64,000 nucleotides of DNA, from sequence record SRR9188677_231, one strand, 5' to 3'. Both the position numbers and the translations under genes were made by a program. The notes under the pieces were generated by a model that saw nothing but the letters and a program-made list of their open reading frames with translations, searched no databases and was not told where the DNA came from. Shown here piece after piece: positions 41,648-63,807 of the stretch (positions within the stretch are counted from its first letter, which is position 1; every line of letters begins with the position of its first letter).

Positions 41648-42679
41648 TTATTTGACTAATACCTGTGGCGTGTCTGTTGCACCTAAACCGAAGCCACCAT
41701 TGTTTTCAAAGCATATACGTTCATCATGTTCCAAATACTTGGCGCTGGTTTTAGTTTTGGCCCAGCGGGCTTCCAGATTCCAGCCATCAGAATCCTCTGC
41801 ATCGGTATATTTAATCGCAGGAATAGTAATGGTGAAAGGCCGGGTGTAGATGGTCGGATCATCAAACGTGCCTTCGTAATTAAAACGTTTGCCATCGTCT
41901 GAAAAAATATATTTTTCTTTAATAGTGGCATTCTCACTGACGAACTCACCTGAGCGCCCGAACAGTGCTTTTCCGTTATGATTACTCACATCAACAACCA
42001 GCGTATTGCCTTCCCAATGCCCTCTGAAATCACCGTTCCATAGTTTTAATTTGGAAGGCAGATGTGGTTTGTTATCGAGATGGATAATCCGGCTGCCGTT
42101 ATCAAATACAAACAATACATACCCAGGATATTGCAAAATATCATAACCGTGCCAGTAAAAGGATTTTGGTACGCCGCCAGGTGCGCATCGTGCGTTTGGC
42201 TCCACATGACCTGGGTTGGTGGGGTTATGAAAGCCTATCCTGAACTGTTCCACCTTTTCCTTGGCCCATGGCTGGAAAGGGAATTTGCCATCCTGAGGAT
42301 CGCTGATTCGGCTTGGTGCCCGCTCTTCACGTGGCCCCAGTGGTTTTTTTCTGGCTTCGTAAATCACCCCTGCTTGCGGGTCTTCCAGATTGCTGTGATT
42401 ACCAATCGTGTTCGACCACAAGCCACTAATGTCAGGTTGGCCATCCGGCAACCGCGGACCACTCCATTTTCCTGAGACCAGTTTAGGAAATGAAGTTTCA
42501 CGGGCAATCCTGGTCTGACCAGGTGGCGTGACAACCGGTGTTGCAGCAACTGGCTGAGCCTTGCTCTTAGCTTCATCGACAGCCAGCGATGACTCTGACG
42601 CTGCCATTGCGCACAAAGCAAGGAAAATACTGGAGTACCCTGAAAAGCGCTTAATACGATGTTTCATCATATGATTCAT
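41648..42679 (-). CDS. Uncharacterised periplasmic protein (GHWEGxTLVVD family)
   Basis: Signal peptide, GQPDISGLW, CAPGGVP and GDFRGHWEGNTLVVD; paralog of 42713-43528. Confidence 0.8.
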   Translation of the reverse strand: MNHMMKHRIKRFSGYSSIFLALCAMAASESSLAVDEAKSKAQPVAATPVVTPPGQTRIARETSFPKLVSGKWSGPRLPDGQPDISGLWSNTIGNHSNLEDPQAGVIYEARKKPLGPREERAPSRISDPQDGKFPFQPWAKEKVEQFRIGFHNPTNPGHVEPNARCAPGGVPKSFYWHGYDILQYPGYVLFVFDNGSRIIHLDNKPHLPSKLKLWNGDFRGHWEGNTLVVDVSNHNGKALFGRSGEFVSENATIKEKYIFSDDGKRFNYEGTFDDPTIYTRPFTITIPAIKYTDAEDSDGWNLEARWAKTKTSAKYLEHDERICFENNGGFGLGATDTPQVLVK

Positions 42680-42712
42680 TGACCATTCATTTGTTTTAAC
42701 TGAGTTACTGAG

Positions 42713-43528
42713 CTATTTAGTGTCCGGCTTTGGCGGGTAATGTTGCTCGTACTCGAGGGTGTAGCGGTAATCTTCAATGAGCTGAAAGTTTTTTTCTGGG
42801 TGGCGATGCAAATAAACAGTAATGTTCCATGGACGGCTAAACACATTTTTGTCTTTAATCGTAGCCTTGTATTCAATCGTGTTAGCATCAGCCAGCTTCC
42901 AGCGCTCCACAACGTGCAGTGCATCACTGTGAAAGTTACCTGAACGATCCAGCCAGGTTTTATCATTAAAGTGCTTCACGTCAACAACCAGGGTATCGCC
43001 TTCCCAATGACCACGGGAGTCGCCTAACCACCAGTCGTTAGGATCATCAGGATGCTCGGTATTGTTGGTGTGTATAGTGCGTACCGAGTGTCCAAATTGA
43101 TGCACGATAGTGATATCACGTGGCCGTTGGAATAGCTGGATGGGTTCACGGTAATAGATGCCACGTGGTACGCCGAGCGTGGCACCTCTCAAGCGTGGAT
43201 CTGCGGTGAACCTGTTTTCAAAATTCTTCTTTCGCTGCTCTAGAGCTTGCGGCAGGTAAGGAATCTCTCCACCCTCCACCACACCCACACCAGAAGAAGC
43301 ATCAGCGCGTGCAATATGTGGCTCCAAATCTTCATCTGCCGAACTGGTGGTCTCCCATATACCGGAAAAATCCGGTTTTTTGTCAGCTCCGCGAGGAATT
43401 TTGGCATCGTGGGCAAATACATGATCGACCGGTAAAAAAAAGGCCAACACCATGAAAGACAGCAAGGTCGCTATTTCTTTCACACGTTGCCCGGATTGCA
43501 TCTTTAAAGGCATCAACTGAAATCCCAT
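42713..43528 (-). CDS. Uncharacterised periplasmic protein (GHWEGxTLVVD family)
   Basis: Signal peptide, KPDFSGIW, GDSRGHWEGDTLVVD, HSDALHVVER; start may be 43501-43528. Confidence 0.8.
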   Translation of the reverse strand: MGFQLMPLKMQSGQRVKEIATLLSFMVLAFFLPVDHVFAHDAKIPRGADKKPDFSGIWETTSSADEDLEPHIARADASSGVGVVEGGEIPYLPQALEQRKKNFENRFTADPRLRGATLGVPRGIYYREPIQLFQRPRDITIVHQFGHSVRTIHTNNTEHPDDPNDWWLGDSRGHWEGDTLVVDVKHFNDKTWLDRSGNFHSDALHVVERWKLADANTIEYKATIKDKNVFSRPWNITVYLHRHPEKNFQLIEDYRYTLEYEQHYPPKPDTK

Positions 43529-43555
43529 TCTTTTAATTTTTTGTCATCAGTGACA

Positions 43556-43999
43556 TTAGTTAGTGGTACCTGCAGACGGCAATGCTGGTGCGTCCTGTGC
43601 ACCGCCAGTCTGGAATACCCGGCCATCGGCCAATTTGATAGAAGTGGAATAGGCGAATTTCTTACCATTCTTCGATAAATAACCATTGATGACTACTTCA
43701 GTACCTGATGGCAACACAGTTTTGGTCAGGCCTTTTTGTTTGAGGCTGAAAGGTGCCCCAAACTCAAATCCCCAGTTGCTGACTGTGCCATCGGCTTCTT
43801 TAACATCAACATATACCCAGCTATGCGGGTTCACCCACTCGGCTTTGGTGACCACACCTTTAATTTCAATCGGCTTCAAAGCATCAAACTCTGCCGAAAA
43901 AGCATGGTGTGCAGTCACATTCTGTGCACTTAACATTAAGCCGGTAGTTATGACGGCTAAAGTCCCCTTAAAGCACACAAAACTATTTAATTTAGTCAT
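43556..43999 (-). CDS. DUF6152-like periplasmic protein
   Basis: Signal peptide ending A|HHAFSAEFD, WVNPH motif, OB-fold-like strand pattern. Confidence 0.75.
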   Translation of the reverse strand: MTKLNSFVCFKGTLAVITTGLMLSAQNVTAHHAFSAEFDALKPIEIKGVVTKAEWVNPHSWVYVDVKEADGTVSNWGFEFGAPFSLKQKGLTKTVLPSGTEVVINGYLSKNGKKFAYSTSIKLADGRVFQTGGAQDAPALPSAGTTN

Positions 44000-44034: not shown

Positions 44035-44439
44035 TTACTCAGCTTTAGTCAATACAGCCAATTTGGATATGCCAACACGTTCCACTATCGCCATCACCTT
44101 TGCAACAGACCCGTAATTCACTTCATCGTCTGAACTCAGATGAAACACCTGTTCCGGACGTTGCTGGTAAATCGTTTTCAACTTGCTTTCAAGCTCGGTC
44201 AAGGGCACTTGGTCTTTATCCACGTAAACATCGCCTTTGGCGTCTACACTTAATGTCACAGGTTTAAGCTGGTCGGTAGGTTTGGTTGCAACCGTTTTAG
44301 GTAAATTCACGGAGATTGCATTGGTCATCACCGGGGCAGTCACAATAAATGCCACCAGCAATACCAACATCACATCCACTAATGGGGTTACGTTGATCTC
44401 ACTCAGGACGTCGTCGCCATCGCTTGAACTAAAAGACAT
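44035..44439 (-). CDS. exbD: ExbD/TolR biopolymer transport protein
   Basis: EINVTPLVDVMLVLL motif. Confidence 0.93.
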   Translation of the reverse strand: MSFSSSDGDDVLSEINVTPLVDVMLVLLVAFIVTAPVMTNAISVNLPKTVATKPTDQLKPVTLSVDAKGDVYVDKDQVPLTELESKLKTIYQQRPEQVFHLSSDDEVNYGSVAKVMAIVERVGISKLAVLTKAE

Positions 44440-45167
44440 TAAGCTATCGCTCCTTTCAGGTTACGCACTACATTAGCTTCTTGAGTTGTACTGCCAGTTT
44501 CAATACGTGGCTGGAAAGTCACGCGGCGGGATACTTTGATCAAGTCTGCGGCAAAATCATCCAGGTTGTCGCTGCTGGTCTTCAAGCGGCGCAGGAAGAA
44601 GTTATAGGCAAGCACCGCCGGCACCGCTACAGCAATACCAATTGCAGTCGCAATCAATGCCTCACCAATCGGGCCTGCAACGACTTCCAGGCTGGCAGAG
44701 CCCAGGCGGCTGATGTCAGTCAGCGCGTGCATAATGCCCCACACCGTACCAAACAGACCGACGAATGGCGCAGTACTACCAATACTAGCCAGCACTACCA
44801 GACCGGCTTCACGGATAAAACGCTCTTTTTTAATCTGCTGTTTTAACGCACGCTCCAGTACATCCTGGCGGTCACCGGAGTGCTGCAGATCACCACCAGC
44901 GCCTGATGAAGCATCAAACTCTTTCAGTGCATGAAAACCCACTTGGGCGACACGATAAGCAGGGCCTGCATGCCCTTCTAACTTAGAAGCGGCATTCAAA
45001 TCGGACGCAGACCAGAATGCGCCACGGAATTTAACGTTTTGACGGCGGATCAGCCACACCTGATAGGCCTTAATTAAAATCAAAACCCAGGTGAAAATTG
45101 AGCCGATGACTAATGCAATCAATACACCTTGTACGACTGCAGATGTTGATGAAGATACTTCTAACAT
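44439..45167 (-). CDS. exbB: ExbB/TolQ proton channel
   Basis: APFVGLFGTVWGIM and EALIATAIG motifs. Confidence 0.93.
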   Translation of the reverse strand: MLEVSSSTSAVVQGVLIALVIGSIFTWVLILIKAYQVWLIRRQNVKFRGAFWSASDLNAASKLEGHAGPAYRVAQVGFHALKEFDASSGAGGDLQHSGDRQDVLERALKQQIKKERFIREAGLVVLASIGSTAPFVGLFGTVWGIMHALTDISRLGSASLEVVAGPIGEALIATAIGIAVAVPAVLAYNFFLRRLKTSSDNLDDFAADLIKVSRRVTFQPRIETGSTTQEANVVRNLKGAIA

Positions 45168-45179
45168 AATCTAAATTCC

Positions 45180-46028
45180 TTATTGTTCAGGATTAAAAAT
45201 AATTGGCACAGTAGCCCAGCCATCGATAGGTGTGCTGCCACGCTTAGAGGGTACGAAAGTCCATTTCATGACAGTATTTACAGCCGCATCATCAAGTATT
45301 TTCTTACCGGTTGATTTTTTGACTGTTGCACTCTCAGGGGCTCCACTTGCCAACACTCGTACACGCAATATGACTGTTCCACCCCACCCGTTTCTTAATG
45401 CCGCACCGGGATAATCAGGTTTGGGGTTATTCAAATAGCCTGCGTTAGCAGAAGCTTCTGTTACAGGTTCTTCAACCTTGGGTGCAGGCGGTGCTGGTGG
45501 TGGCGCTACTTCAGGTATCGGTGCGCTTTTGTCCAGCGGACCGCTGGCTGCCATCACCGGCGCACTGGTTGCCTCTGCCTTGGTGTTTTCTTGCACAGTC
45601 AAATCAGTCGGCGCCACATTTTCAACCGCAGGCGCCGTTTTAAGTGCTGCGATGGGCTGGGGTGGCGGCGGTGCTACTTTCTGTACTTTTGGTGGCGGCG
45701 GAGGCGGTGGTGGCGGAGGCGGCTCTACCACCGGCGGTGGAATTTCAGGTTTGATAAACTCAATCGCCACCTCATGCTTAGGTTCAACAACCAAAGGAGG
45801 CTGCTCGTAATTAAGATATGCCCATACGGCAGCCAGGTGCAGTAAAACAATGCCTGTACCAGCCCAAATGTAAACACTCTTTTTTAGCTCGCCATCAAAC
45901 TGCAACCCTTGCTTGATAGCAATCCGTTCCAGTTTTGCAGCCAATTGTGCCGTTGGCTTTGCCAACTGGCTAAAAGTTTTGTCATCAAATGCATCAACTA
46001 CATAACGACTTAGTGAACTCGACATCAA
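45180..46028 (-). CDS. tonB: TonB energy transducer
   Basis: TM helix with LH, poly-Pro spacer, YP..A..G..GTV and LDDAA...W.F C-domain. Confidence 0.92.
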   Translation of the reverse strand: MMSSSLSRYVVDAFDDKTFSQLAKPTAQLAAKLERIAIKQGLQFDGELKKSVYIWAGTGIVLLHLAAVWAYLNYEQPPLVVEPKHEVAIEFIKPEIPPPVVEPPPPPPPPPPPKVQKVAPPPPQPIAALKTAPAVENVAPTDLTVQENTKAEATSAPVMAASGPLDKSAPIPEVAPPPAPPAPKVEEPVTEASANAGYLNNPKPDYPGAALRNGWGGTVILRVRVLASGAPESATVKKSTGKKILDDAAVNTVMKWTFVPSKRGSTPIDGWATVPIIFNPEQ

Positions 46029-46099: not shown

Positions 46100-46215
46100 T
46101 ACAATTTTTGTGCCAACATAAAAAACCATTAATATTCAATTGGTTAAGACATAAATCGCATTTCTTCCAATGGTTAACTGTCTCTGTAGAAACAACTACT
46201 GTTGCGTGGCAAACA
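46100..46215 (-). promoter_or_regulatory. Sigma-54 promoter 2 with paired enhancer sites
   Basis: TGGCAC-AAAAA-TTGTA at 46100-46115 (-12 is GT, not GC); TGT-N10-ACA at 46179-46194 and 46200-46215; IHF-like 46134-46146 (1 mismatch). Confidence 0.65.
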
Positions 46216-46230
46216 GTCCTCATGGCTACA

Positions 46231-46294: not shown

Positions 46295-47425
46295 TTACTG
46301 GATAATGCCGTATTGCTTTAAATAAGCCCTTAACACATTACGGCTAATCCCCAGCACCCGCGCCGTTTGCACTTGGTTCTGGTGTGAATATTCATAAGCT
46401 TTGAGCACAATTCTTTTAACGCAATTCTCAAGCAATTCATCTGGCTCCAGTTTGATATATTCACGCAGCAAAGCATCCATCTGATCTTCAAGTGACAAAC
46501 TATTGCTTAACCCTGAGCCTGCAAGACTTTGCAAACTTGGCAAGTTCAAATCCGATGGCTTCAGCAATTTGCCGTCGCACACCAGTAATGCCCGGTGAAT
46601 GACATTTTCCAGTTCGCGGATATTTCCCGGCCATGGATAATCATTCATCAATTTAATTGTGTCTGATGTCAGCTGCGGCTTCACCGTATGCAAGCGATTG
46701 CGATAGACCTCCAGAAAATGTTCAACCAGAGGCAAAATATCCCCCTTACGATCTCGCAAAGGCGGGATCTCAATGGGGACCACTTTAATCCGGTAGTACA
46801 AGTCTTCCCTGAACCTGCCTGCATTCACGGCTTCCACCAGGTTCACATTGGTCGCAGCTATCAGCCGCACATCAATTGGAACCGGTTTTCGGGAACCTAT
46901 CGGCGTCACTTCACGCTCCTGTAAAACCCTGAGCAACTTCACCTGGGTGGAGAGAGGTAAATCTCCGATTTCATCCAGGAATAAAGTCCCGCCGTTGGCA
47001 GTCTCGAACCATCCTTTTTTGGAACCGACGGCGCCGGTAAACGCACCTCGCTCGTAACCGAATAATTCACTTTCAACCAATGTTTCTGAAAAGGCACCGC
47101 AATTGATGGCCGCAAATGGGCCCGCTTTTCTTGGGCTTAAATTATGGATATGTCTTGCTACCAACTCCTTGCCCGTCCCAGTTTCACCTTTAATCAAAGC
47201 AGTAGCATCACTTGGTGCTACCTTTTCAATCAAAGAAAGTAACTGTTTGGATTTCTCATCAGAATAAATGAGTGCGCTTGCTCTAACGGATAAACTTAAA
47301 CGTTGTGGATTGGGAAAAAGAACAATCTTGTCCTCTCCCGAAAGGTTTTCATCAAACTCGGATGCTGTCCATACTCCCTCGCCCGCATTGTCACGATCAT
47401 TTCTCGCCATTTGTGTATCCGTCAC
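46295..47425 (-). CDS. Sigma-54-dependent activator (bEBP), SfnR-like, lacking an N-terminal sensor domain
   Basis: GETGTGKE, GAFTGA, FLDEIG, FREDLYYR, WPGNIREL, Fis-type HTH (NQVQTARVLGISRNVLR); short N-terminus LSLSVRASALIYSD resembles SfnR-type activators. Confidence 0.9.
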   Translation of the reverse strand: MTDTQMARNDRDNAGEGVWTASEFDENLSGEDKIVLFPNPQRLSLSVRASALIYSDEKSKQLLSLIEKVAPSDATALIKGETGTGKELVARHIHNLSPRKAGPFAAINCGAFSETLVESELFGYERGAFTGAVGSKKGWFETANGGTLFLDEIGDLPLSTQVKLLRVLQEREVTPIGSRKPVPIDVRLIAATNVNLVEAVNAGRFREDLYYRIKVVPIEIPPLRDRKGDILPLVEHFLEVYRNRLHTVKPQLTSDTIKLMNDYPWPGNIRELENVIHRALLVCDGKLLKPSDLNLPSLQSLAGSGLSNSLSLEDQMDALLREYIKLEPDELLENCVKRIVLKAYEYSHQNQVQTARVLGISRNVLRAYLKQYGIIQ

Positions 47426-47535
47426 GTGGTATTTATTTTCAAAAACGTGAAAGATACGCTTGCTACATAATAATTACAAATAACATTTTGTCATTCATTT
47501 ATATCAAATAGTTATTAAAAAATCGGCAATTCTAC

Positions 47536-47664
47536 TGCTGGCACTGCAACAGTTCTGAATAGGCAATTGCTGCGAAATCAACAGAGGCAACATTTAAATA
47601 AAAAACACAAAGCATACAAGCCATTGATTAAAAGAGTTTTTAATAAGGTGGCACACATTCTGCT
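47536..47664 (+). promoter_or_regulatory. Sigma-54 promoter 3 with paired enhancer sites
   Basis: TGC-N10-ACA at 47536-47551 and 47568-47583; exact IHF consensus 47617-47629 (minus strand); TGGCAC-ACATT-CTGCT at 47649-47664. Confidence 0.8.
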
Positions 47665-47752: not shown

Positions 47753-49885
47753 ATGTCACGCCGAGCTAAGCCCTCATATTCGTATTTATCTGCATTATTT
47801 TTATCACTGGCAGCTTTAACAGAATTTCAACAAGCAATGGCTGCTGAAGAGGAGTTACCTGCTGTTGAAGTGAAAGGTAAACAAGAACAAGAGTCGTCTA
47901 TTAATTTGAAAGCTAAAACCAGTACTGGTAGCCGCCTTGGATTAACCAATCTGGAAACCCCCGCCAGCGTAGAAACACTGGATGCCGAGACAGTGAAACT
48001 TCGCGGCGATTTCAGCATACGCGAAGCTGTTTCCCGAACTACTGGTTTCACAGATATTAGCAACCTGGGCACCGGTGTTGCTTACTCTGCCCGTGGCTTC
48101 ACCGGCAACAACTCAGTAGCCCAGGCAGAAGATGGGATACGTTTGCTAGTCGCGGCTACGACCATCACCTACCCCTCCGATAGTTGGGGCTATGACAGAT
48201 TCGAAGTATTGCGTGGCCCGGCATCAGTACTGTTCGGTGACGCTTCAGTCGGCGGCATTGTGAACAGCATCCGCAAAGCACCAAACCGCGAATTTTCATT
48301 GCAAGGCCTGGTGAGTGGTGGCACACAAGGCGCCTATCGTTTAGGGATAGGCGGCACAGCACCAGTGGGTGAAGTAGCCGCCGTACGTATTGATGCATCG
48401 GCTTCGGGCGGTCAGGGACATGTGGATGATGGACGTTATTACAGTCACAAGCTAATGACTAATTTTGAGATCAAGCCAAGTGATACGCTCAAGCTGAACT
48501 TTATCTATGATCATAGTGATGAAAATCCTATGAATTACACTGGCATCCCATTAAAGAATGGCCGGATTAAAAGTGAGCTGCGTGACGAGAATTACAATGT
48601 AGACAATGCTATTCAAGAATTCCTGGATGACAGATTGAAAGCCAAGTTGGAATGGGATATTTCAGACTCTTTGAAACTTACTAACACAGCGTACTGGTTT
48701 AACTCACGCAGGCATTGGCGTGGAGTTGAATTGTACGCTTTAGGCGCTACTCCTAATACCGTCAACAGGAACACTTATACCGAGATACAGCACAAACAAA
48801 GGCAACTGGGTAACCAGACTATTCTCGCCGGCACGAGTGAGCTTTGGAATCATGAAAACAAATGGTCTGTTGGCTATGAAGTTGCTCGAGTTGATTTCCA
48901 GTATTTTGACAACTTCTACCTGGGCAATGACCCGAGTAGTACGGTTGATATTAGCAACAGCAATCCTGGCTTGTTTCAAACCATAGACCCAACGCTAAAG
49001 GAATTTACCTCCAAGACAGTGCAACAAGCCTTGTTTGTAGAAGACGCTTTTCGCATTACGCCTGACCTAACCTTAAGTGCAGGTCTTCGCCAAGACTGGA
49101 TCGACCTTGATCATACTGCCACCCTTCCTTACAGAACCACTGATTACAACAAGCAGTTCTCCCCCTTCTCATTCCGTCTGGGTGCTACTTACTTGTTCTC
49201 ACCGAACACATCACTATATGGTCAATGGAGTCAAGGTTCTGACCCTGTCTCTACGATTGTTAGCACACGTTCAAACAATCGCAACTTTAAACTTACCTCG
49301 GCAGAGCAGACTGAAATTGGTATCAAGCATGTGCTCGAGAATCGGAAAGGCGAGTTTACTGTGGCTATCTACGATATCAGCAAGGATGATATTCTCACGC
49401 GTGATCCCAGCAACCCAACGCAGACGGTACAGGGTGGTAAGCAATCATCCAGGGGCATAGAGTTTTCTGCTTTATTATTACCGCTTGATCATTGGCGCAC
49501 AGACTTTAACCTTGCTATTCTGGATGCTCAATATGACGAATTGCGTGAAGGTAGTGCGGGTATTTCGCGTGCAGGCAACACCCCAGTTGATGTTCCGGAG
49601 CGTGTAGCTAATGCGTGGGTCTATTACCAGCAACCATTGTGGCAAGCCGGACTAGGTGCACGTTTCGTTGGTGAACGTTATTCGAATAATGCCAATACGA
49701 CAAAATTGCCTGGCTATACCGTTTATGACGCTAATGTAGCTTGGCACATTAATAAAAATATCACACTGCGTGGCAGCATCCGCAATTTGACCAATAAGTT
49801 GTATGCGGCTGTCTCTTACGATACCGAGCAGTTTCTCATTGGTGAATCTCGCCGTGCCGAAATTAGAGGCGAGTTTAACTTTTAA
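47753..49885 (+). CDS. TonB-dependent receptor (siderophore-receptor-like)
   Basis: ETPASVE, RFEVLRGPASVLFG and RNLTNKLY motifs; terminal Phe. Confidence 0.92.
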   Translation: MSRRAKPSYSYLSALFLSLAALTEFQQAMAAEEELPAVEVKGKQEQESSINLKAKTSTGSRLGLTNLETPASVETLDAETVKLRGDFSIREAVSRTTGFTDISNLGTGVAYSARGFTGNNSVAQAEDGIRLLVAATTITYPSDSWGYDRFEVLRGPASVLFGDASVGGIVNSIRKAPNREFSLQGLVSGGTQGAYRLGIGGTAPVGEVAAVRIDASASGGQGHVDDGRYYSHKLMTNFEIKPSDTLKLNFIYDHSDENPMNYTGIPLKNGRIKSELRDENYNVDNAIQEFLDDRLKAKLEWDISDSLKLTNTAYWFNSRRHWRGVELYALGATPNTVNRNTYTEIQHKQRQLGNQTILAGTSELWNHENKWSVGYEVARVDFQYFDNFYLGNDPSSTVDISNSNPGLFQTIDPTLKEFTSKTVQQALFVEDAFRITPDLTLSAGLRQDWIDLDHTATLPYRTTDYNKQFSPFSFRLGATYLFSPNTSLYGQWSQGSDPVSTIVSTRSNNRNFKLTSAEQTEIGIKHVLENRKGEFTVAIYDISKDDILTRDPSNPTQTVQGGKQSSRGIEFSALLLPLDHWRTDFNLAILDAQYDELREGSAGISRAGNTPVDVPERVANAWVYYQQPLWQAGLGARFVGERYSNNANTTKLPGYTVYDANVAWHINKNITLRGSIRNLTNKLYAAVSYDTEQFLIGESRRAEIRGEFNF

Positions 49886-49908
49886 GCAAGCATCTTGAGT
49901 TAGTTGTT

Positions 49909-51329: not shown

Positions 51330-51902
51330 CTAATAATGATTGCGGCGCAACTCAGAAGGAATATAACTCCATTTGGGAATCCACAGCAAAGCGATTAAAG
51401 ACCCTATCGCCCCTGCTATCGCAATCAATATCATAGCCGGATGCTCAACAATCTGCTCCGGATAAATACTGACAAACGCGCCCAAGCCGATGGCATTTCC
51501 TCCTGCTACTAACACTGCCGCGGCATAATCATGAAAACGGCGGGCCTTGTTGGCCCCCATCGCCCATTTCGGATCAGTATTATAGCTTGGCATATGCGTA
51601 TGGGCATTATCCAGCTTCTCAAGCTCGGACAGGAAACTGCGCAAATTGGTTATTGCTCGTTCTGATTTGTAATCCAGGAATGCGAGACTAGTGGAAGCCA
51701 CGGGGAATCCAAGCACCAACCATTCTATTGGTAAAGGGTAACTCGCTGCACCAGAAGGTTTAAGTGCCACCAGGGCTGCAAGCAAACTGACTGTCAGCGT
51801 CACATACAGGGTCAGGGCCTGCTGCCGTTGCGTAATGCGGGCATTCACCTCTTGCGAAGCAGAAATAAACCGGTAATTGGCATCCACGATATTTTTTGAC
51901 AT
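51330..51902 (-). CDS. Hypothetical membrane protein (about 4 TM)
   Basis: 190-aa ORF with hydrophobic helices and a GGAG RBS. Confidence 0.65.
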   Translation of the reverse strand: MSKNIVDANYRFISASQEVNARITQRQQALTLYVTLTVSLLAALVALKPSGAASYPLPIEWLVLGFPVASTSLAFLDYKSERAITNLRSFLSELEKLDNAHTHMPSYNTDPKWAMGANKARRFHDYAAAVLVAGGNAIGLGAFVSIYPEQIVEHPAMILIAIAGAIGSLIALLWIPKWSYIPSELRRNHY

Positions 51903-51957
51903 GGTATTGACTCCGCTTTAACAGTGGGTTCATCAATGAGTTTAGCTGAAACAAAAA

Positions 51958-51998: not shown

Positions 51999-52016
51999 GA
52001 GCCAATCAGTGAATTG

Positions 52017-53939: not shown

Positions 53940-54079
53940 ATGAGTGAAAATAGAAGGACTACAAAAAAGAAAGGTATGCTACGCCCTGCCCCCATTAAAG
54001 AGGGATTTAATCAGGGCATAACATACACAGAGATTGCAGCAATTTACTGATGTCAGCTTAATTGCTGCGGGGGAGATAG

Positions 54080-56443: not shown

Positions 56444-56633
56444 TGCAACACACATGCCAGTTTTAGAAGTCGCAATAAAATTATTTCCAGTTTGAGAAGA
56501 ATCACCTAACCAATTGATTTTAAAAACCTTTAAGTAAAACAAAAATGGCACACCATTGGTGTGCCATTTAACGATTGCCATCTATCTGTTGATTTCGCAA
56601 CAGTTGCGATATCAGGCTGTTGGGTCAGAAACA
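56444..56633 (-). promoter_or_regulatory. Sigma-54 promoter 5 with paired enhancer sites
   Basis: TGGCAT-GTGTG-TTGCA at 56444-56459; exact IHF consensus 56507-56519; TGT-N10-ACA at 56587-56602 and 56618-56633. Confidence 0.82.
56543..56569 (-). terminator. Palindrome with T-tract, probable terminator for the upstream operon
   Basis: aaatggcacacca-t-tggtgtgccattt; continues ttgtttt on the minus strand. Confidence 0.55.
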
Positions 56634-56838
56634 GAAGTGTAAACTAAAGCAATAAAACTTATAGCGTATCCCTACCCACACTGTACGTAACTCCAGTGGA
56701 TATATTCAAACTAATGTCCAAAGGTCTTAGGATTAAGGAAGAAACTGATAAGAAATATAGCGGGAAAAGATGAGATGCACTATCACAACGAGCATAGTTT
56801 TAGTACTAGCCCGCCTTGCTTTCAAGGATTATGAAAGA

Positions 56839-57123
56839 TTATTTCAGATAGGTTTTAAGAACGTTGATGACCTCATCAAGATCTTCCTGGCGATTATGGC
56901 CATGCTCATCTGCCTCGTGCGGCTGGCCTAAATGTTCGCGAATATGGCCCTCCAGTGCTTCAGACATCAAGCCATCAATAGCCCCTCTCACAGACGCGAC
57001 CTGGTGCAGAAAATTAGCGCATGCCACCCCGTTATATAGTGACTTTTCCAGCGCGTCGATTTGACCTTTGATTCGGTTAATGCGCAGGCCAAGTTTTTTA
57101 TTATTTTCCGTGATGTGAGACAT
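56839..57123 (-). CDS. CsoR/RcnR-family repressor with RcnR (Ni/Co) fingerprint
   Basis: From MSH: His3, Cys35, His60, His64; RINRIKGQ and C-terminal YLK. Confidence 0.85.
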   Translation of the reverse strand: MSHITENNKKLGLRINRIKGQIDALEKSLYNGVACANFLHQVASVRGAIDGLMSEALEGHIREHLGQPHEADEHGHNRQEDLDEVINVLKTYLK

Positions 57124-57191
57124 GGTGTTCCTTAAAAATAATGCCGGGGCAGAATAACTGGCTCCCGGCATTGATGGTCAAGTCGAGAGAG

Positions 57192-57812
57192 TTAGCTTGA
57201 ATACTTAATTGAGCAACCATAAGGCTTGGTGCTGGCGTGCGGCACTTTCTTGCCATCAGCCAATGCTGCCCATACTTCGCGCACGTAGTTGTTTGCTTTT
57301 GGCAGATCTTCTACTTTGGCAGTTGGAATGTCATCAATGCCGCCTTTGTAGACCAGGATGCCTTTAGGATCAACAATGTAAATGTGCGGTGTCGTCTGTG
57401 CGCCGTAAGCCTGGCCAATTTTTCCATCCGCATCCAGCACCACATAAGCAGGTTTTGCGCTTCTGGATTCATTCAGTTTGGTGGCTTCTGCACCACTCAC
57501 ATGGCCTTGTTTACCTTCTGCGGATGAGTTTACTTGTACCCATACAATATTCTTAGCGGCTGCGTCTTTTTGCAGTTGTGGAATATTACCACTTTCATAG
57601 TGTTTTTTTACAAACGGGCATTCGTGGTTGGTCCACTCCAGCACCACTGTTTTGCCTTTCAGCGAATCCAGGCTGAGCTTGCCGCCATCTGCTGTGGTGC
57701 CAGTGAATGCCGGTGCCGGTTTATCTATAATGGCTTCTGCAGAAACTGACTGGCTGAATACGCCAATCGCCAAACCGATCAAGGTATGAGTAAAAATTTG
57801 CTTAATTTGCAT
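57192..57812 (-). CDS. Periplasmic peroxiredoxin-like (AhpC/TSA) redoxin
   Basis: Signal peptide, EWTNHECPFV, TTPH, YKGGID and YGCSIKY motifs. Confidence 0.85.
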   Translation of the reverse strand: MQIKQIFTHTLIGLAIGVFSQSVSAEAIIDKPAPAFTGTTADGGKLSLDSLKGKTVVLEWTNHECPFVKKHYESGNIPQLQKDAAAKNIVWVQVNSSAEGKQGHVSGAEATKLNESRSAKPAYVVLDADGKIGQAYGAQTTPHIYIVDPKGILVYKGGIDDIPTAKVEDLPKANNYVREVWAALADGKKVPHASTKPYGCSIKYSS

Positions 57813-57846
57813 GATAGCTCCTGGGTTGTATAAAAGTTGTGGTTAA

Positions 57847-59955
57847 TTAAAGTTGGATATGGGAAAGCACACTGGCTGGCGTCAGAATCTGTGGCAGCTC
57901 AATCGGCTTACCGGCATGTCCCGCGGGATAAAACACGTACAAGGGCACACCACTGCGCCCGAACTTAGTCAGAATTTTGGTGATTTCGGCATCTTTGTTG
58001 GTCCAGTCGCCTTTTAAATACGTAATTCCCTGTTGTTCGAATGCCTGTACGACTTCGGGCTGGCTAAGCGCGACCTTCTCATTGACCAGGCAACTGATGC
58101 ACCAGGCCGCAGTAAAATTCAGGAACACCGGCTTGCCTTCTGCCAGCAGGGACTCAAGTTTTTCGGCCGAATACGGCTGCCAATTTTGTTTTAGGGATTT
58201 AGCCTGTTTATCAGGCAAAGCTTCTGTGGGAGTTTCGGCCAGTAAAGTGACCAGCCCGATAGCAAGCCCCACCACCAGCACTACGCCAGCATTTGCAAAT
58301 TTAAGCCTGGTGGATGAAGCGCCCCTGCTGATGGCATACATCCATGCGGCCAATGCAATCAATACAAAACCACTGAGGACCAGCACCACCGCCAGCTCGC
58401 CTTGCTGCTGGGCTAGCACCCACACCAGCCACACGGCGGCTGCATACATAGGGAATGCAAAAAACTGCTTGGTGTATTCCATCCATATACCCGGTTTTGG
58501 CAATGCTTTTTGCAGGCCAGGCCAACTGGTGAGCAGCAGATAAGGAAATGCCAGGCCCAGACCGAGACTGATAAAAATCACTATCAATTCAGGTGCTGGG
58601 CGCGCCAGCGCAAACCCTAAGGCAGCGGCCATAAATGGTGCAGTACAAGGCGTCGCCACTACGGTGGCGAGTACACCGGTAAAGAAACTGCCCCAATAAC
58701 CAGGCTTATCCGCCAGATGACTGCCTACGCCACTGATACCGCCACCAATGGTAAACACGCCAGATAAATTCAAGCCGACAGTAAACATCAGGTAAGCCAT
58801 CAGGAACACAAACCACGGTGACTGGAACTGGAAGCCCCAGCCCACCTGTGCCCCACCCGCTTTTAACAACACCAGAACCAGGGCTAGCGCAACGAAGCTG
58901 ACAACCACACCAAGGGTATAAACAAGCCCTTGCCTGATCAGCTCACCGCGACCGAGACTGGAATGCGAGATGAGAGAAAGTGCTTTGATAGACAGTACCG
59001 GAAACACACAAGGCATCAGGTTGAGGACTATGCCGCCTGCGAACGCCAGAAAAATCGCCAGCAACAGGCTGTCAGTGCCTGTTTCAGCGGGACTAGATTC
59101 AGTCACGGTTTGCAGTTTGGGATTCAGTAAATAACCGCTGGTTTCAGTGCTCTGCCCCTTTGCAATTAACACGCCTTCCAGTGCTTCGCCGGGTTGCAGC
59201 GGCATATCTCCGGCATGCAATTCTATGGCGATGCCAGTAGCGGTTTTTGTAACTACCTGCTCATGGCTTTGGGCAATCTTTCCCCATTCGTAAGGATAAA
59301 ACCAGATATCCTTCACTGCTGCATCAGCTAGTTCGGGCGCATCCACCAGTAATGTCAATGAACCGTCACTGCCTTGCAAACGGACAGGCCAGCTTACTTT
59401 GGCAGGCTGTCTTTCCAATGCCAGATCGATATCGGGGGCAGCAGTTTTCCGCCCTTGGCCAGCGGCTACTACTGGCAAATCCAGCGATAAAACAACTTGC
59501 TGTGGAATACACTCTTCCTTGCACACCAGCCAGTCGACCACCGCCTGAACTTTCAGCGGTTTGCCAGGTTTTAAATCGGCTGGCAATTTCAACGGCGTGG
59601 GTAATGTCACGCTATTTTCATAGCCGTAATTCACAATCGGGCCCATTTTGAAACGATCCGGCATTGGCCAGACCACATCACCCGCCTCTACTGGCTGGGA
59701 AAACTTCCAGCCTATGGTAGTCACCGTTCCGGAGTCACCAGGGTTACGCCAATAGGTATGCCAGTGAGGCAGAATATCGAGTTTGATCCCCAGAGTAATT
59801 TGCTCACCTGGCGCAATGTGGCTATGTGAAGAAATCAAGGTGGCTGTCACCTGCGGTGTGCTGGCCTGATTTGAAGCCGCCATTACAGGCAGGCTTAATC
59901 CCATCCAGAGGACCCACAACATCAGGTTTCTGATGGAATAACCTTTAAACATCAT
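57847..59955 (-). CDS. dsbD: DsbD/ScsB-type protein-disulfide reductase
   Basis: WHTYWRNPGDSG and CKEEC alpha domain, NLMPCVFP / ATPCTAP TM domain, WCISC thioredoxin domain; start MMFKG overlaps the upstream stop (ATGA). Confidence 0.9.
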   Translation of the reverse strand: MMFKGYSIRNLMLWVLWMGLSLPVMAASNQASTPQVTATLISSHSHIAPGEQITLGIKLDILPHWHTYWRNPGDSGTVTTIGWKFSQPVEAGDVVWPMPDRFKMGPIVNYGYENSVTLPTPLKLPADLKPGKPLKVQAVVDWLVCKEECIPQQVVLSLDLPVVAAGQGRKTAAPDIDLALERQPAKVSWPVRLQGSDGSLTLLVDAPELADAAVKDIWFYPYEWGKIAQSHEQVVTKTATGIAIELHAGDMPLQPGEALEGVLIAKGQSTETSGYLLNPKLQTVTESSPAETGTDSLLLAIFLAFAGGIVLNLMPCVFPVLSIKALSLISHSSLGRGELIRQGLVYTLGVVVSFVALALVLVLLKAGGAQVGWGFQFQSPWFVFLMAYLMFTVGLNLSGVFTIGGGISGVGSHLADKPGYWGSFFTGVLATVVATPCTAPFMAAALGFALARPAPELIVIFISLGLGLAFPYLLLTSWPGLQKALPKPGIWMEYTKQFFAFPMYAAAVWLVWVLAQQQGELAVVLVLSGFVLIALAAWMYAISRGASSTRLKFANAGVVLVVGLAIGLVTLLAETPTEALPDKQAKSLKQNWQPYSAEKLESLLAEGKPVFLNFTAAWCISCLVNEKVALSQPEVVQAFEQQGITYLKGDWTNKDAEITKILTKFGRSGVPLYVFYPAGHAGKPIELPQILTPASVLSHIQL

Positions 59956-60482
59956 TGTGCGAGCCTGTCCTGGATTTTCTGTAAACCGGCAATGGCGCAA
60001 GGCTCATCCGCGCGGCCGCCACCCACGCCGATCGCACCAATGATTTCATCACCAACCTTGATCAGAATTCCACCCGGACGGCCATTGATATTAGGGTTAG
60101 CCGCCACTGAATCAGCAAATGCCTTATCCGTTTTTGCCTGTTCAAACAAAGCACTGGTGCTTTGTTTGAACTGCAATGCGGTCTGTGCCTTGATCGTGCT
60201 GGAGCTGACGCCACGTGGTGACGTACCATCTGCAGCAAGCAAAGCCTTCAACACTCCTGCGGAATCCACCACACTTGCCGCAACTGTTTGTGCACCATCG
60301 GCAGCACAAGCCTCTACAGCAACTTTTGCGGCTTCTATCGCCAATGCCAGGGATGGGCCTTTGGCTGCAGGCACCCTGGCAGGCGTATTGGCTGGAGGGG
60401 GTGGAGGATCTTCGGCCATCACCGGACTGGCAATGGCTCCGTACAACCACACAAGTACAAGACTTGCAGGTAATTTTTTCAT
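59952..60482 (-). CDS. Secreted GlcG/HbpS-like heme-binding protein
   Basis: Signal peptide, SVVDSAG, KAQTA, PGGILI and GAIGVGG motifs. Confidence 0.82.
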   Translation of the reverse strand: MKKLPASLVLVWLYGAIASPVMAEDPPPPPANTPARVPAAKGPSLALAIEAAKVAVEACAADGAQTVAASVVDSAGVLKALLAADGTSPRGVSSSTIKAQTALQFKQSTSALFEQAKTDKAFADSVAANPNINGRPGGILIKVGDEIIGAIGVGGGRADEPCAIAGLQKIQDRLAQ

Positions 60483-60632: not shown

Positions 60633-60825
60633 CGCAATTGCTATGCCAATACCTCACAAACTTAATATGAGATAAAACAAATAATTTTTAACCGATTAAA
60701 ATCAATACATTATTGGCAGGCACGTAATTAGTTTAAAAATTAAAGTTATTTAGTTAATTACTCTCAAATCATCACGCCTGTTTGAAATTCAACACTTGAC
60801 TCAACATATTGCTGCCACAGAAACA
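60633..60825 (-). promoter_or_regulatory. Sigma-54 promoter 6 with paired enhancer sites
   Basis: TGGCAT-AGCAA-TTGCG at 60633-60648; exact IHF consensus 60700-60712; TGT-N10-ACA at 60779-60794 and TGC-N10-ACA at 60810-60825. Confidence 0.8.
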
Positions 60826-60855
60826 TTCATTCTTATTCAACTTGAGTTTTAACAC

Positions 60856-61045
60856 TGTTTCTACACAAACACTTTGCTCTTGAATTGTTCAGATACCAGC
60901 AGACCCCAGCTTTACATCACCAAGGCCTCAACATCTTGGTGTAGATACCTTTAAAAATTTCATATACAAATCAGCCTCTTAAAAAAAGCTGGCATCAAAC
61001 CAAGCGGCCAGCAAGGCGGAGAAGCAACGTGGCATATTTTCTGCT
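60856..61045 (+). promoter_or_regulatory. Sigma-54 promoter 7 with paired enhancer sites
   Basis: TGT-N10-ACA at 60856-60871 and TGT-N10-GCA at 60886-60901; IHF-like 60969-60981 (1 mismatch); TGGCAT-ATTTT-CTGCT at 61030-61045. Confidence 0.78.
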
Positions 61046-61139: not shown

Positions 61140-61862
61140 ATGCAAGACACCACCATAAAAGTCTGGGACCTTCCACTACGACTTTTTCATTGGCTATTGG
61201 TTATTACGGTAGCAGTTTCATATCTCTCTGTGAAAACCGACTGGCTGGATGTGGATATCCACTGGTATGCGGGTCTGACCATTACTTTCCTGGTGTTATT
61301 CCGTTTAAGTTGGGGTATTGTTGGCACATCCACAGCCAGATTTACACAGTTCTTCCCTACCCCGCGCAAGCTGCTGAATTACTTTAAAAGTTCGTGGCAG
61401 GGCGTTGGACACACACCAACCGGAGCATTGTCAGTGATTGCGCTCCTGTTATTACTGGCGGGGATGGTTGCGACCGGCGTAATTGCAAGTGATGACATCA
61501 CGCTGCAAGGTCCGTTAGTCAAATATGCAGATGAAGCACTGAGCGACCAGATGTCCGAATTACATTCCCTGCTGTTTAATGTATTGCTGGGCCTGATCGT
61601 TTTGCATGTCCTCGCTATCGTTTTCTACGGGTTACTCAAAAAAGACAACCTGTTAAAACCAATGATCAGTGGGAAAAAGTCCGTGCCCCTTGCCGCATCA
61701 TTAACGCTTCCGCCTATCGGTAAAAGGCTGGGATGGCGCTTACTGTTTAGTGTAATCACTGCTGGCGCATTGACCTGGCTGCTGTTCAGCCCGCAAGCGC
61801 ATACCTTTTTTTACCAGCCCCCGCCTGCCCCAGTTGTGCCTGCTTCACAGCATGCATGGTAA
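61140..61862 (+). CDS. Cytochrome b (Ni/Fe-hydrogenase b-type family)
   Basis: VWDLPLRLFHW, H..G, GHTP.GA, LH...LHV heme ligands. Confidence 0.9.
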   Translation: MQDTTIKVWDLPLRLFHWLLVITVAVSYLSVKTDWLDVDIHWYAGLTITFLVLFRLSWGIVGTSTARFTQFFPTPRKLLNYFKSSWQGVGHTPTGALSVIALLLLLAGMVATGVIASDDITLQGPLVKYADEALSDQMSELHSLLFNVLLGLIVLHVLAIVFYGLLKKDNLLKPMISGKKSVPLAASLTLPPIGKRLGWRLLFSVITAGALTWLLFSPQAHTFFYQPPPAPVVPASQHAW

Positions 61863-61901
61863 CGACAGGCGTTTTTATCATCAATTTCAAGGAAAAAATA
61901 C

Positions 61902-62366
61902 ATGAAAATTCAGACAATCCTGTGCGCGTTTTTGATGTTGCAAGGAGCAGCAGCCTCTGCTGGCCCGATTGAAGATCAGATCAAGTTCCGTCAATCTGCT
62001 TACAGCTTTATTGGCTGGAATACCAACAAAATCAAAACCCAGCTCGACAATCCGGATACACTGTCAAAAGAAGAAATAGTTGCCGCAGCGAATGCCATTG
62101 CTGCTGCTGCGAATTCGGGACTGGGCGCGCTATATGGCCCGGGGACGGACAAAGGCGAAGGCTGGAAGAAATCCAGGTTAAAATCTGAGTTCTTTGAAAA
62201 ACCTGAAGAAGCAAAAAAAGCAGCCTTGCAGTTCAACCTGGAAGCCAATGAGTTTGCTAAGGTAGCGGCCACTGGCGATGTAGGCCAGATCAAAGCCAAG
62301 TTTGGCAAACTGACGCAATCATGCAAATCCTGCCATGACAGCTTCAGGGAAAAAGATGTGAAATAA
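61902..62366 (+). CDS. Cytochrome c' (class II)
   Basis: Signal peptide, IKFRQ, C-terminal CKSCHDSFR. Confidence 0.9.
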   Translation: MKIQTILCAFLMLQGAAASAGPIEDQIKFRQSAYSFIGWNTNKIKTQLDNPDTLSKEEIVAAANAIAAAANSGLGALYGPGTDKGEGWKKSRLKSEFFEKPEEAKKAALQFNLEANEFAKVAATGDVGQIKAKFGKLTQSCKSCHDSFREKDVK

Positions 62367-62481
62367 ACATTACTGTTTGTTTCTATTTTGAACATGCACG
62401 GCGGCTGGCATTTGTCAGCCGCCGTGCGTATGTATAGCAATTAAACAAACCCCTTAACCGCCTGTAGATGCATGAGCCAGT

Positions 62482-63807
62482 ATGTCTTTTAAAAAACTAA
62501 TATTTCTAGCCTTATTCAGTGTGATCCTGATCGGGGGTTCCATATGGCTTTGGCGGGCTTATGAAGCACGGAATGGAGTTGTTGCGGATGAAGCAGACCC
62601 TGCCGCATCTCATGATGCAGACCATAAAAATGGGGGTAATCATGGGCCGGGCAGTGGTCGCCATCGTGGTGACAAACCTGTGCCAGTGTTGGTGACAGCG
62701 GTTGTCAAAGCCGATGTACCTATCATCCATTCGGCCTTGGGCACTGCAATTCCCTCCGCGGTAGTCACTGTTACCAGCCGTGTCAACGGTCAGCTGATAC
62801 AGGTGGCTTTTAAAGAAGGTGAACTGGTCAAACAAGGGCAGTTGCTGGCAAAGATAGACCCGAAACCATTTGAAACGGCGCTGGCACAAATCCAGGGCCA
62901 GGCCGTACGCAACCAGGCATTGCTGAAAAACAGCCAGATTGACCTGGAGCGTTTTAAAACGCTGCAATCGCAAGATTCGATTGCGTCACAGCAGGTAGAC
63001 TCACAGGCTTCATTGGTACAACAATACCAGGGTACGGTACAAGCTGACCACGCCTCGGTTGAGAATGCGAGGCTGCAACTCGGTTATACCAATATTATTG
63101 CTCCCGTCAGTGGCCGTATCGGTTTACGCCAGGTAGATAGCGGCAACAATATCACTACCACAAACCCGATTGCAGTTATTAACGCCATCCACCCTATTCA
63201 TGTGGTGTTTACACTGCCTGAAGACAAAATCACGCAACTGGTCCAACAAACACATACACCAGGCAGCCATCATAAATTCAAGGTGGAAGCCTGGGACAAA
63301 GCAAATAACACCAGGCTGGCCAACGGCTTTTTGACCAGTATTGATAACCAGATTGACACCACTTCTGGCACGCTGAAACTCAAAGCGGAATTTTCCAATG
63401 AAGACAATCGCCTGTTTCCCAACCAGTTCATCAATGTCCGCCTGTATAGCGACACCATACGGAATGCCAGTGTTATTCCGGTCAATGCTTTACAGCATGG
63501 GCCGGACGGCGCCTTTGTTTACAAGATTGTGCGTGACGAGAAAGGCGACAAGGTCATCCTGCAGCCGGTCACCGTTGGTCACACTACCGGTGAAATTGCG
63601 GCCATCACAAATGGTCTCGCTGTAAATGACCAGGTAGTCAGCAGCGGCATAGATAAACTGAAACAGAATGCCAAAGTAAAAATTAAAAACCCGGCCAATG
63701 CATTTGACGATAAAGATGAGCCAGGTGCCGAAAAAAAATCCAGGCGTCCTCACGGTACTGGCTCTCCGGACCAGAAACATAAACGCCGTTCGGATGCGCC
63801 TGCTTAA
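62482..63807 (+). CDS. mdtA: MdtA/MuxA-family RND periplasmic adaptor
   Basis: SRVNGQL, IAPVSGRIGLRQVD, DNQIDTTSGT and LFPNQF motifs. Confidence 0.9.
   Translation: MSFKKLIFLALFSVILIGGSIWLWRAYEARNGVVADEADPAASHDADHKNGGNHGPGSGRHRGDKPVPVLVTAVVKADVPIIHSALGTAIPSAVVTVTSRVNGQLIQVAFKEGELVKQGQLLAKIDPKPFETALAQIQGQAVRNQALLKNSQIDLERFKTLQSQDSIASQQVDSQASLVQQYQGTVQADHASVENARLQLGYTNIIAPVSGRIGLRQVDSGNNITTTNPIAVINAIHPIHVVFTLPEDKITQLVQQTHTPGSHHKFKVEAWDKANNTRLANGFLTSIDNQIDTTSGTLKLKAEFSNEDNRLFPNQFINVRLYSDTIRNASVIPVNALQHGPDGAFVYKIVRDEKGDKVILQPVTVGHTTGEIAAITNGLAVNDQVVSSGIDKLKQNAKVKIKNPANAFDDKDEPGAEKKSRRPHGTGSPDQKHKRRSDAPA

Follow-up and report, generated by a model that had tools for sequence, protein, structure and literature searches.

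A methionine- and cysteine-poor gene block of Methylophilus and its probable place in a sulfur-starvation regulon

Because sulfur sparing, the scarcity of methionine (Met) and cysteine (Cys) in proteins made under sulfur limitation, is already established, the finding described here overturns nothing: a stretch of Methylophilus DNA (64,000 nt of sequence record SRR9188677_231, the whole of which is called the window) holds a large new instance of it, in a cluster of 23 proteins taken as positions 38601-63807. Earlier work on sulfur sparing is said to include that of Mazel and Marliere in 1989 and of Baudouin-Cornu et al. in 2001, and low-sulfur sulfate-starvation proteins of Pseudomonas putida were reportedly treated by Scott et al. 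in 2007, to go by the title. The SfnR/CysB sulfate-starvation regulon of Pseudomonas is, again by title, reportedly the subject of Endoh (2003 and 2005), Habe (2007), Kouzuma (2008) and Lundgren (2019). SfnR is not known to have a receiver domain; TonB-dependent uptake is tied to the use of sulfate esters in the case of Pseudomonas sftP/atsK; and periplasmic peroxiredoxins fed by DsbD or ScsB exist. The available part of PMC8557817 describes how starvation proteins of Rhodococcus qingshengii IGTS8, SfnG and TauD among them, spare sulfur, and the available part of PMC12581299 counts antioxidant enzymes within the sulfate-starvation response.

Like the low-sulfur starvation proteins, among them SfnG, TauD and the sulfate-binding protein, the products of the Methylophilus cluster have few Met and Cys, and SfnG, MsuE, SfnB and the sulfate-binding protein of the sister genome G001 (the nearest genome) agree; unlike them, the window has a block of about 25 kb that encodes mostly envelope proteins, including a TonB-ExbB set of its own and an RND adaptor. 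The likeness to the Pseudomonas SfnR/CysB regulon lies in a sigma-54 activator placed over sulfur-acquisition operons, with two activator paralogs in the sister genome, one of them after a DszC/SfnB-like gene; the target genes here are mostly different, and the likeness is known from domain layout and context, not from comparison of SfnR sequences or sites. As with sftP/atsK, outer-membrane receptors and a TonB system would lie inside a sulfur-starvation response, but the window is without a sulfatase or an AtsK-type dioxygenase, and the partners here are a DUF6152 protein, two exported proteins and a PepSY_TM protein. DsbD adjoins an exported two-Cys AhpC/TSA-type protein in the manner of the DsbD/ScsB-peroxiredoxin pairs (a likeness read here from the genes); unlike those, it stands behind a sigma-54-type promoter within a sulfur-poor regulon. 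In the literature library that was searched, no paper linked Methylophilaceae with sulfur starvation, and none linked sulfate starvation with gluconolactonase or dienelactone hydrolase; the text of PMC3728764 contains neither "sulf" nor "TonB".

Met and Cys content of the cluster proteins

Open reading frames (ORFs) were called over the whole window (longest ORF, no overlap), every Met and Cys position was listed for the 23 cluster proteins, and these were compared with 26 other window ORFs, six ORFs at 34081-38436 being placed in neither group. The cluster holds 111 Met plus Cys in 7400 aa (1.50%), where 279 would be expected at the rate of the rest of the window, vs 378 in 10028 aa (3.77%) for the other ORFs (Mann-Whitney p = 1.1e-7). 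The sister genome served as background (2,558,054 bases, 87%; 2257 ORFs of at least 90 aa); it carries an orthologous cluster with 85-100% protein identity to that of the window. Over its 2257 ORFs the median Met plus Cys content is 3.69%, the 5th percentile 1.46% and the 1st percentile 0.76%, and the median is 1.71% in its 35 cluster ORFs vs 3.70% in the rest (p = 8e-14). When its proteins were sorted into crude location classes, the cluster was lower in each: 0.90% vs 2.74% for the mature parts of exported proteins (p = 4e-7), 1.9% vs 4.0% for proteins with two or more transmembrane segments, and 1.36% vs 3.37% for the other class. Of the 477 proteins of at least 120 aa predicted to be exported, just nine have a mature part free of sulfur, and these nine include three from the cluster, two from a paralogous module and one porin behind a sigma-54-type site. 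The depletion of the cluster is genuine and confined to the two sulfur residues: Met occurs at 0.50x and Cys at 0.41x the genome rate, Trp at 1.11x, Tyr at 1.04x, and other residues near 1, with His mildly low at 0.74x.

An earlier note on this DNA, made from the letters and the ORFs, had described several proteins as holding no Met beyond the initiator and no Cys. Residue listing confirms this for the 450-aa lactonase-like protein (54999-56351, minus strand), in which M1 is the sole Met and Cys is absent, and for the 441-aa MdtA-type adaptor (62482-63807, plus strand), which has the initiator Met alone; the binomial chance of no internal Met or Cys in 449 residues at 3.69% is 4.7e-8. The same statement about two DUF6644 proteins stands for the 169-aa one at 53165-53674 (minus strand); for the one at 52663-53190 (minus strand) it stands only if translation starts at an internal ATG, since the longest ORF has M1, C13 and M18, and only the initiator Met is left when residue 18 is taken as the start. 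YghX (54080-54967, minus strand) has M1 and C186 only, as described, with C186 lying within a G-F-C-Y-G nucleophile elbow. The mature proteins that had been called free of both residues are so: the protein at 42713-43528 (minus strand) has its 4 Met all in residues 1-26 and no Cys, and the DUF6152 protein has M1, C9 and M22, all within its first 22 residues. Cytochrome c' has M1, C8 and M12 in its signal peptide and otherwise only C141 and C144 of its CxxCH motif, and the 710-aa receptor has M1, M29, M235 and M260 with zero Cys, which agrees with the count of two Met after the signal peptide. Leftover Met and Cys do often sit in signal peptides, as was seen for the DUF6152, 271-aa and 343-aa proteins (in the last, five of seven within residues 1-25) and for cytochrome c'. 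The contrast drawn with Asd (9549-10661; 17 Met and 4 Cys in 370 aa) was reproduced, and DsbD (3.2%), ExbD (3.0%) and the 190-aa membrane protein (2.1%) show no depletion, just as had been said. Those Cys that survive in the cluster are ones required by function, i.e., the catalytic Cys, two CxxCH haem sites, a lipobox Cys, and Cys65 and Cys200 of the AhpC/TSA-type protein.

The label "rhodanese" given to the 450-aa protein did not hold. PF00581 scores 21.3 bits against a cut-off of 22.2 and the whole protein is without Cys, and for these two reasons its N-domain is not taken for a rhodanese; judged from the sequence, it is a rhodanese-like fold at most and no working sulfurtransferase.

Homologs were compared using Pfam and NCBIfam profile searches (with curated cut-offs where given), and the generic family controls were distant Pfam-family ORFs from other genomes of the class. 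Generic ORFs of the SMP-30/gluconolactonase-like (SGL) family, 23-32% identical to the 450-aa protein, have a median of 4.15% Met plus Cys (n = 14, one locus left out; range 1.45-6.71%), and generic dienelactone-hydrolase (DLH) ORFs a median of 3.86% (n = 23; minimum 2.27%). In all 120 close relatives listed for the 450-aa protein, which are 46-97% identical to it, Met counts run from 0 to 5 and Cys counts from 0 to 2; they come from Methylophilaceae, sphingomonads, Cellvibrio, Methylococcaceae and one Chitinophagaceae record; these close sulfur-free relatives occur in sulfur-scavenging neighbourhoods. All 120 listed relatives of YghX (76-100% identical) have 1-3 Met and 1-2 Cys. Among paralogs within the sister genome, ExbB has 3.2% and 4.6% vs 0.83% for the cluster copy, RND adaptors have 1.7%, 2.3% and 3.6% vs 0.45%, and cytochrome b561 has 3.1% vs 1.7%; no difference from paralogs was found there for ExbD, TonB or DsbD. 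Only 3 of 150 MdtA-family representatives are as low as the window MdtA, and the four receptors of the regulon rank 1, 2, 3 and 6 for low sulfur among 20 receptors of the sister genome. Sulfur content is therefore below that of homologs in other contexts for the SGL and DLH proteins, ExbB, the MdtA-like adaptor and cytochrome b561, and weakly so for the receptors. The earlier note had read the pattern as sulfur sparing under sulfur limitation, and had named equally sulfur-poor homologs from unrelated contexts, or values within the normal range for periplasmic proteins of this genome, as outcomes that would count against it. Neither occurred: the generic SGL and DLH proteins and the ExbB and adaptor paralogs are ordinary, and the cluster values (0.90% vs 2.74%) lie outside the exported range of the sister genome, so that the reading is supported.

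The depleted block is wider than the region 41648-63807 to which it had been assigned. It begins at 38601, with an 896-aa receptor (1.0%), and in the sister genome it extends past the position that corresponds to the end of the window and takes in MdtB, MdtC and an outer-membrane factor (the pumps being read from length and position), so that its size is about 25 kb in the window and about 42 kb in the sister genome.

Control sites, sulfur-acquisition genes and neighbourhoods

Sigma-54-type -24/-12 sites, predicted from the pattern, precede seven operon starts by 56-150 nt and are correctly oriented. The strict degenerate form of the pattern has 10 matches in the window vs 1.03 in shuffles, and six of the ten are cluster promoters; in the sister genome, 9 of its 22 strict intergenic sites precede genes with less than 1.8% Met plus Cys, whereas the 10th percentile would predict about 2.2. 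Six control regions were searched for inverted repeats with no sequence supplied in advance, and three of the six proved to contain one arm type with a spacer of 8 nt. A matrix grown from this arm type marks 14 sites, which form seven pairs of 18-bp inverted repeats; the members of a pair are 21-32 bp apart, and the pairs precede the promoters by about 100-160 bp. An independent test of this repeat model is the sister genome outside the orthologous cluster, where seven matches fall at sulfur-poor loci: one lies between msuE-sfnG and sfnB, three precede a DszC/SfnB-like gene, and three are at a paralogous DUF6152 module. The likely reader of these sites is encoded within the cluster (46295-47425, minus strand). 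This 376-aa sigma-54 activator has PF00158 at residues 53-219 with no domain recognised before it, and is thus an AAA+ protein without receiver or sensor; its relatives are 344-417 aa long among the 120 listed. Its paralog in the sister genome is 56% identical and is overlapped by 4 nt by the preceding DszC/SfnB-like gene.

The sister genome has cytoplasmic sulfur-acquisition enzymes of the same composition: SfnG (TIGR04021, 625 bits) with 2 Met and 0 Cys, MsuE (TIGR03566) with 1 Met and 0 Cys, and SfnB (TIGR04022) with 3 Met and 0 Cys, all above the curated cut-offs. The msuE-sfnG and sfnB genes have a sigma-54-type site in addition to the repeat-model match between them. Its sulfate-binding protein (TIGR00971, 508 bits) has the initiator Met only; a ModA-like binding protein has 4.0%. 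A second module was seen at C1 625438-630948 (L136), in which a DUF6152 protein, proteins of 267 and 340 aa and a 952-aa receptor are nearly sulfur-free and have repeat-model matches upstream; the first three are 59-68% identical to the cluster copies. Two candidate outer-membrane channels with almost no sulfur were also noted, a TorF/Gcw_chp-type porin with 1 Met behind a sigma-54-type site (C4 252498-253469, L198) and an alginate-export-family barrel with 2 Met, whose gene adjoins that of a sulfate-binding protein (L215:2371-3681). From their composition and position both may be starvation porins for sulfur anions.

The neighbourhoods of relatives of the 450-aa protein were surveyed at 80 loci. 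Cluster genes recur around them: the 896-aa-type receptor at 51 loci, YghX at 34, DUF6644 at 26, cytochrome b561 at 24, DsbD at 21, the 343-aa protein and ExbB at 20 each, and the activator at 13. At loci from distant taxa the depleted set and the spared set of proteins match those of the window. Sulfur-poor neighbours without a window homolog (at most 1.1% Met plus Cys, at least 150 aa) numbered 68 and fell into 32 groups, of which 22 group representatives, with 2 further neighbours, were scanned, 10 singleton groups lying outside the scan. The scanned proteins include TauD, a sulfate-binding protein (5 loci), an arylsulfotransferase beside a sulfatase, a rhodanese, three SsuA-like binding proteins and a luciferase-like monooxygenase, as well as DUF1501 (9 loci) with DUF1549/1553 (15 loci). 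Receptors, an efflux outer-membrane factor, a rotamase, an MFS protein and an ABC permease were also met, and these are non-specific. A full-length GroEL (TIGR02348, 680 bits) with 4 Met and 0 Cys in 540 aa adjoins sulfur-poor receptors at six Duganella/Rugamonas loci (L058:15106-16728, and also L059, L063, L073, L082 and L090); it may be a chaperonin copy for starvation, as its composition suggests.

Readings of the block

We consider it highly probable that the block at 38.6-64 kb is part of a sulfur-starvation regulon whose abundant products have been purged of Met and Cys by selection for sulfur economy. When sulfur is scarce, the SfnR-like activator would bind the inverted repeats and switch on the dedicated TonB-ExbBD, the outer-membrane receptors, periplasmic hydrolases and small exported binders, and also a DsbD-fed peroxiredoxin-type branch, the cytochromes and an MdtABC pump. 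TonB-ExbBD, the receptors, the DUF6152 protein and the two exported proteins would form an uptake front end for some sulfur source; the lactonase-like propeller and the Tat-exported YghX would act as periplasmic processing enzymes; and the DsbD/peroxiredoxin-type branch, the cytochromes and MdtABC would provide envelope redox, protection and export, the redox role being in line with the link between sulfate starvation and antioxidant enzymes drawn in the available part of PMC12581299. Each Met or Cys would be costly because these proteins would be made when sulfur is lacking and there is no recycling of a protein once exported. Selection of this kind would act less on regulators and on membrane proteins of low copy number (the activator, the CsoR-like repressor, DsbD and ExbD), which would keep ordinary sulfur. 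The sulfur of a cleaved signal peptide would stay in the cell, whereas that of an exported mature protein would be lost, and retention after cleavage would explain why the leftover Met and Cys sit in signal peptides.

A more specific proposal is tentative, and we think it rather doubtful: that the cluster is a new TonB-dependent sulfur-scavenging route conserved across Alpha-, Beta- and Gammaproteobacteria. In such a route the receptors, the DUF6152 protein and the two calycin-like exported proteins would capture a sulfur compound; the sulfur-free propeller, with its Cys-less rhodanese-like domain for anion binding, and YghX would release sulfur in the periplasm; DsbD, the peroxiredoxin-type protein and the cytochromes would supply or dispose of electrons; and sulfur-free ExbB, the RND adaptor and GroEL (the last in Duganella and Rugamonas) would replace sulfur-rich housekeeping isoforms in starvation.

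Several observations weigh against the sulfur-starvation regulon. Induction by sulfur limitation is inferred from linkage, from the shared promoter and repeat type and from the neighbours in other taxa, and no canonical sulfur-acquisition enzyme was found within the window. Measured against paralogs or background, there is no depletion in DsbD, ExbD, TonB, the activator, the repressor or the CxxCH lipoprotein. The receptors are sulfur-poor as a class (0.53-2.47% for the 20 mapped TonB-dependent receptors of the sister genome, from 23 matches), and the MdtA family has a median of 1.34% in its best 150 representatives, 19 of which are at or below 0.8%; because both families are sulfur-poor as families, the signal is weaker for the receptors and the MdtA adaptor. 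The background was a sister genome (87% of its sequence), treated with a crude longest-ORF caller and a crude signal-peptide rule. A looser sigma-54 pattern was not enriched in the window (108 matches vs 99 expected), and the strict pattern precedes just 5 of the 65 SGL homologs, every one a close Methylophilaceae relative (control genes, 10 of 196), so that the regulatory wiring seems not to be conserved across taxa. The repeat model was built from the six control regions of the window itself, and its matches in the window and in the orthologous cluster are for that reason partly there by construction; in the sister genome 35 of 65 matches fall inside genes, and only 7 of the 17 intergenic matches outside the cluster are at sulfur-poor loci. 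Finally, the activator hits only generic sigma-54 models in NCBIfam, the name SfnR is absent among its 120 listed relatives, and it is its paralog in the sister genome, not the window activator, that is adjacent to sfn genes.

Other causes of the depletion were weighed against these data. The regulon could answer oxidative or chlorine stress of the envelope, its exported proteins avoiding Met and Cys as the first residues that oxidants damage. Most depleted proteins are indeed exported, and the cluster has DsbD, AhpC/TSA-type and HbpS-like proteins, cytochrome b561, cytochrome c' and a CsoR/FrmR-family repressor; yet SfnG, MsuE and SfnB of the sister genome are cytoplasmic and equally sulfur-free behind the same promoter and repeat type, Trp and Tyr are undepleted, and the neighbours elsewhere are sulfur-scavenging enzymes and sulfate-binding proteins. 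Antioxidant enzymes are, moreover, already known in the sulfate-starvation response according to the available part of PMC12581299, and oxidant-proofing is in our estimate unlikely. It might be held instead that a low Met and Cys content is usual for proteins of the outer membrane and periplasm, which would make the pattern ordinary. This effect of compartment accounts in part for the values of the receptors and adaptors, for the exported proteins of the sister genome have a lower median (2.74%) than the other classes, the ranges of the receptors and MdtA-type adaptors are those given above, and some of the lowest values of that genome belong to PagL, FadL-type and RTX proteins. As an account of the whole pattern it is very improbable, given that cluster proteins are lower inside each class, that a sulfur-free mature part is as rare among exported proteins as stated, and that generic SGL and DLH relatives are near 4%.

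Avoidance of soft ligands in a system for copper, silver or mercury stress or uptake would likewise remove Met and Cys. A CsoR-family repressor, a DsbD with a thiol-oxidoreductase partner, and DUF6152 and 271-aa proteins whose mature N-termini are predicted to start with His could be fitted to it, as could the mildly low His overall. The best models for the repressor are, however, FrmR and RcnR and not copper sensors; Pfam and NCBIfam scans of the window gave no copper oxidase, CopA/CusA-type pump or Met-rich protein; and linkage to sfn, ssu, tau and sulfate-binding genes would be left unexplained. We give metal avoidance hardly any credence, the least of these three. Formaldehyde stress, considered on account of the FrmR-like repressor of a methylotroph, was rejected as the cause; as a matter of general chemistry, formaldehyde is not known to target Met.

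If the block belongs to a sulfur-starvation regulon, near-absence of Met and Cys together with shared sigma-54 sites becomes a lever for annotation: families that had no assigned role (DUF6152, DUF6644, the two exported proteins, the lactonase-like subfamily with only an initiator Met, and YghX) are placed in the response to sulfur starvation, in methylotrophs as in many other Proteobacteria. Several function-less families are thereby given a testable condition. The block shows, too, that sulfur-free copies of general envelope machines such as ExbB and the RND adaptor can exist.

Gene order and further observations

The block opens with the 896-aa TonB-dependent receptor (38601-41291, minus strand; Pfam Plug and TonB_dep_Rec_b-barrel; 7 Met, 2 Cys). 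Its control region (41347-41505, minus strand) has a sigma-54-type site at 41347-41361 and 18-bp inverted repeats upstream at 41458-41475 and 41488-41505. The window has a G+C of 0.39-0.42 at 36000-42000 vs about 0.48-0.50 elsewhere, and this region holds the 896-aa receptor and three small ORFs (36448-38436), for which no known family was found.

Next come the exported 343-aa protein (41648-42679, minus strand) and its paralog in the adjacent gene, the exported 271-aa protein (42713-43528), which is 32% identical to the 343-aa protein of the sister genome; neither has a Pfam or NCBIfam match. A sequence search of the PDB with the 343-aa protein gave no match, and a protein atlas gave unnamed clusters only. 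Its structural model has a mean pLDDT of 63.6, and the core (about residues 178-317) has weak Foldseek matches of the fatty-acid-binding-protein (FABP)/calycin type (best E = 4e-4, TM-score about 0.5 on the target), so that a calycin/FABP-like ligand-binding barrel is a weak lead only. The DUF6152 protein (43556-43999, minus strand; 147 aa; PF19649, 97.7 bits) follows. The predicted mature N-terminus is His-His for this protein and His-Asp for the 271-aa protein, and each might form an N-terminal metal site.

The TonB set, assigned by Pfam, occupies 44035-46028 (minus strand), with exbD at 44035-44439, exbB at 44439-45167 (2 Met, 0.83%) and tonB at 45180-46028; upstream of tonB (46101-46216, minus strand) are a sigma-54-type site at 46101-46115 and the repeat pair 46178-46195 and 46199-46216. 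The receiver-less activator gene beyond it (Sigma54_activat and AAA_lid_14) encodes 4 Met and 3 Cys (1.9%, not strongly depleted). On the plus strand, a control region at 47535-47663 (repeats 47535-47552 and 47567-47584, sigma-54-type site 47649-47663) precedes the 710-aa TonB-dependent receptor (4 Met, 0 Cys), which is followed by a 472-aa PepSY_TM membrane protein (7 Met, 0 Cys), the two spanning 47753-51327.

The operon at 51330-53674 (minus strand; Pfam) comprises the two DUF6644 genes, a CxxCH lipoprotein gene at 52017-52631, whose CxxCH is cytochrome-c'-like, and the gene for the 190-aa membrane protein at 51330-51902. Its control region, 53782-53940 (minus strand), has a sigma-54-type site at 53782-53796 and repeats at 53892-53909 and 53923-53940. 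The 295-aa YghX-like dienelactone hydrolase (PF01738, 177.8 bits; NF041440, 425.9 bits with a cut-off of 460) carries an S-R-R-D-F-L motif of the twin-arginine (Tat) type, and beside it lies the gene for the exported SMP-30/gluconolactonase-like beta-propeller with the Cys-less rhodanese-like N-domain, i.e., the 450-aa protein (PF08450, 137.3 bits). Upstream of the latter (56445-56634, minus strand) are a sigma-54-type site at 56445-56459, a palindrome with a T-run at 56546-56566, and repeats at 56586-56603 and 56617-56634. The palindrome has perfect 10-nt arms, reads on the minus strand as terminator-like for the HbpS-DsbD operon, and sits between the promoter of the next operon and its candidate activator sites. 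It was rejected as an activator site: a T-run follows, and it lies downstream of the repressor gene, as a terminator would.

That operon (56839-60482, minus strand) encodes an HbpS-like protein (59952-60482), DsbD (57847-60000), the AhpC/TSA-type protein (57192-57812; Cys65 and Cys200) and a CsoR/FrmR/RcnR-family repressor (56839-57171). A divergent control region at 60634-61044 has sigma-54-type sites at 60634-60648 (minus strand; fitting the looser pattern only) and 61030-61044 (plus strand), with repeat pairs at 60778-60826 and 60855-60902. The last genes (61140-63807, plus strand) are those for cytochrome b561 (61140-61862; 1.7%), cytochrome c' (61902-62366) and the MdtA-type RND adaptor, which scores 216 bits with TIGR01730 (cut-off 94.9) and, just under its cut-off of 391, 390.2 bits with NF008589. 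After MdtA, the sister genome has ORFs of 1028 and 1032 aa (RND pumps by length and position alone) and then a 464-aa ORF. At C5 152571-163446, within its cluster, are genes absent from the window: one for a receptor of 914 aa (5 Met, 0 Cys), one for a 596-aa protein with a TonB-C domain, and one for a receptor that a TAA stop breaks into pieces of 449 and 216 aa. Strains thus differ in what the cluster contains.

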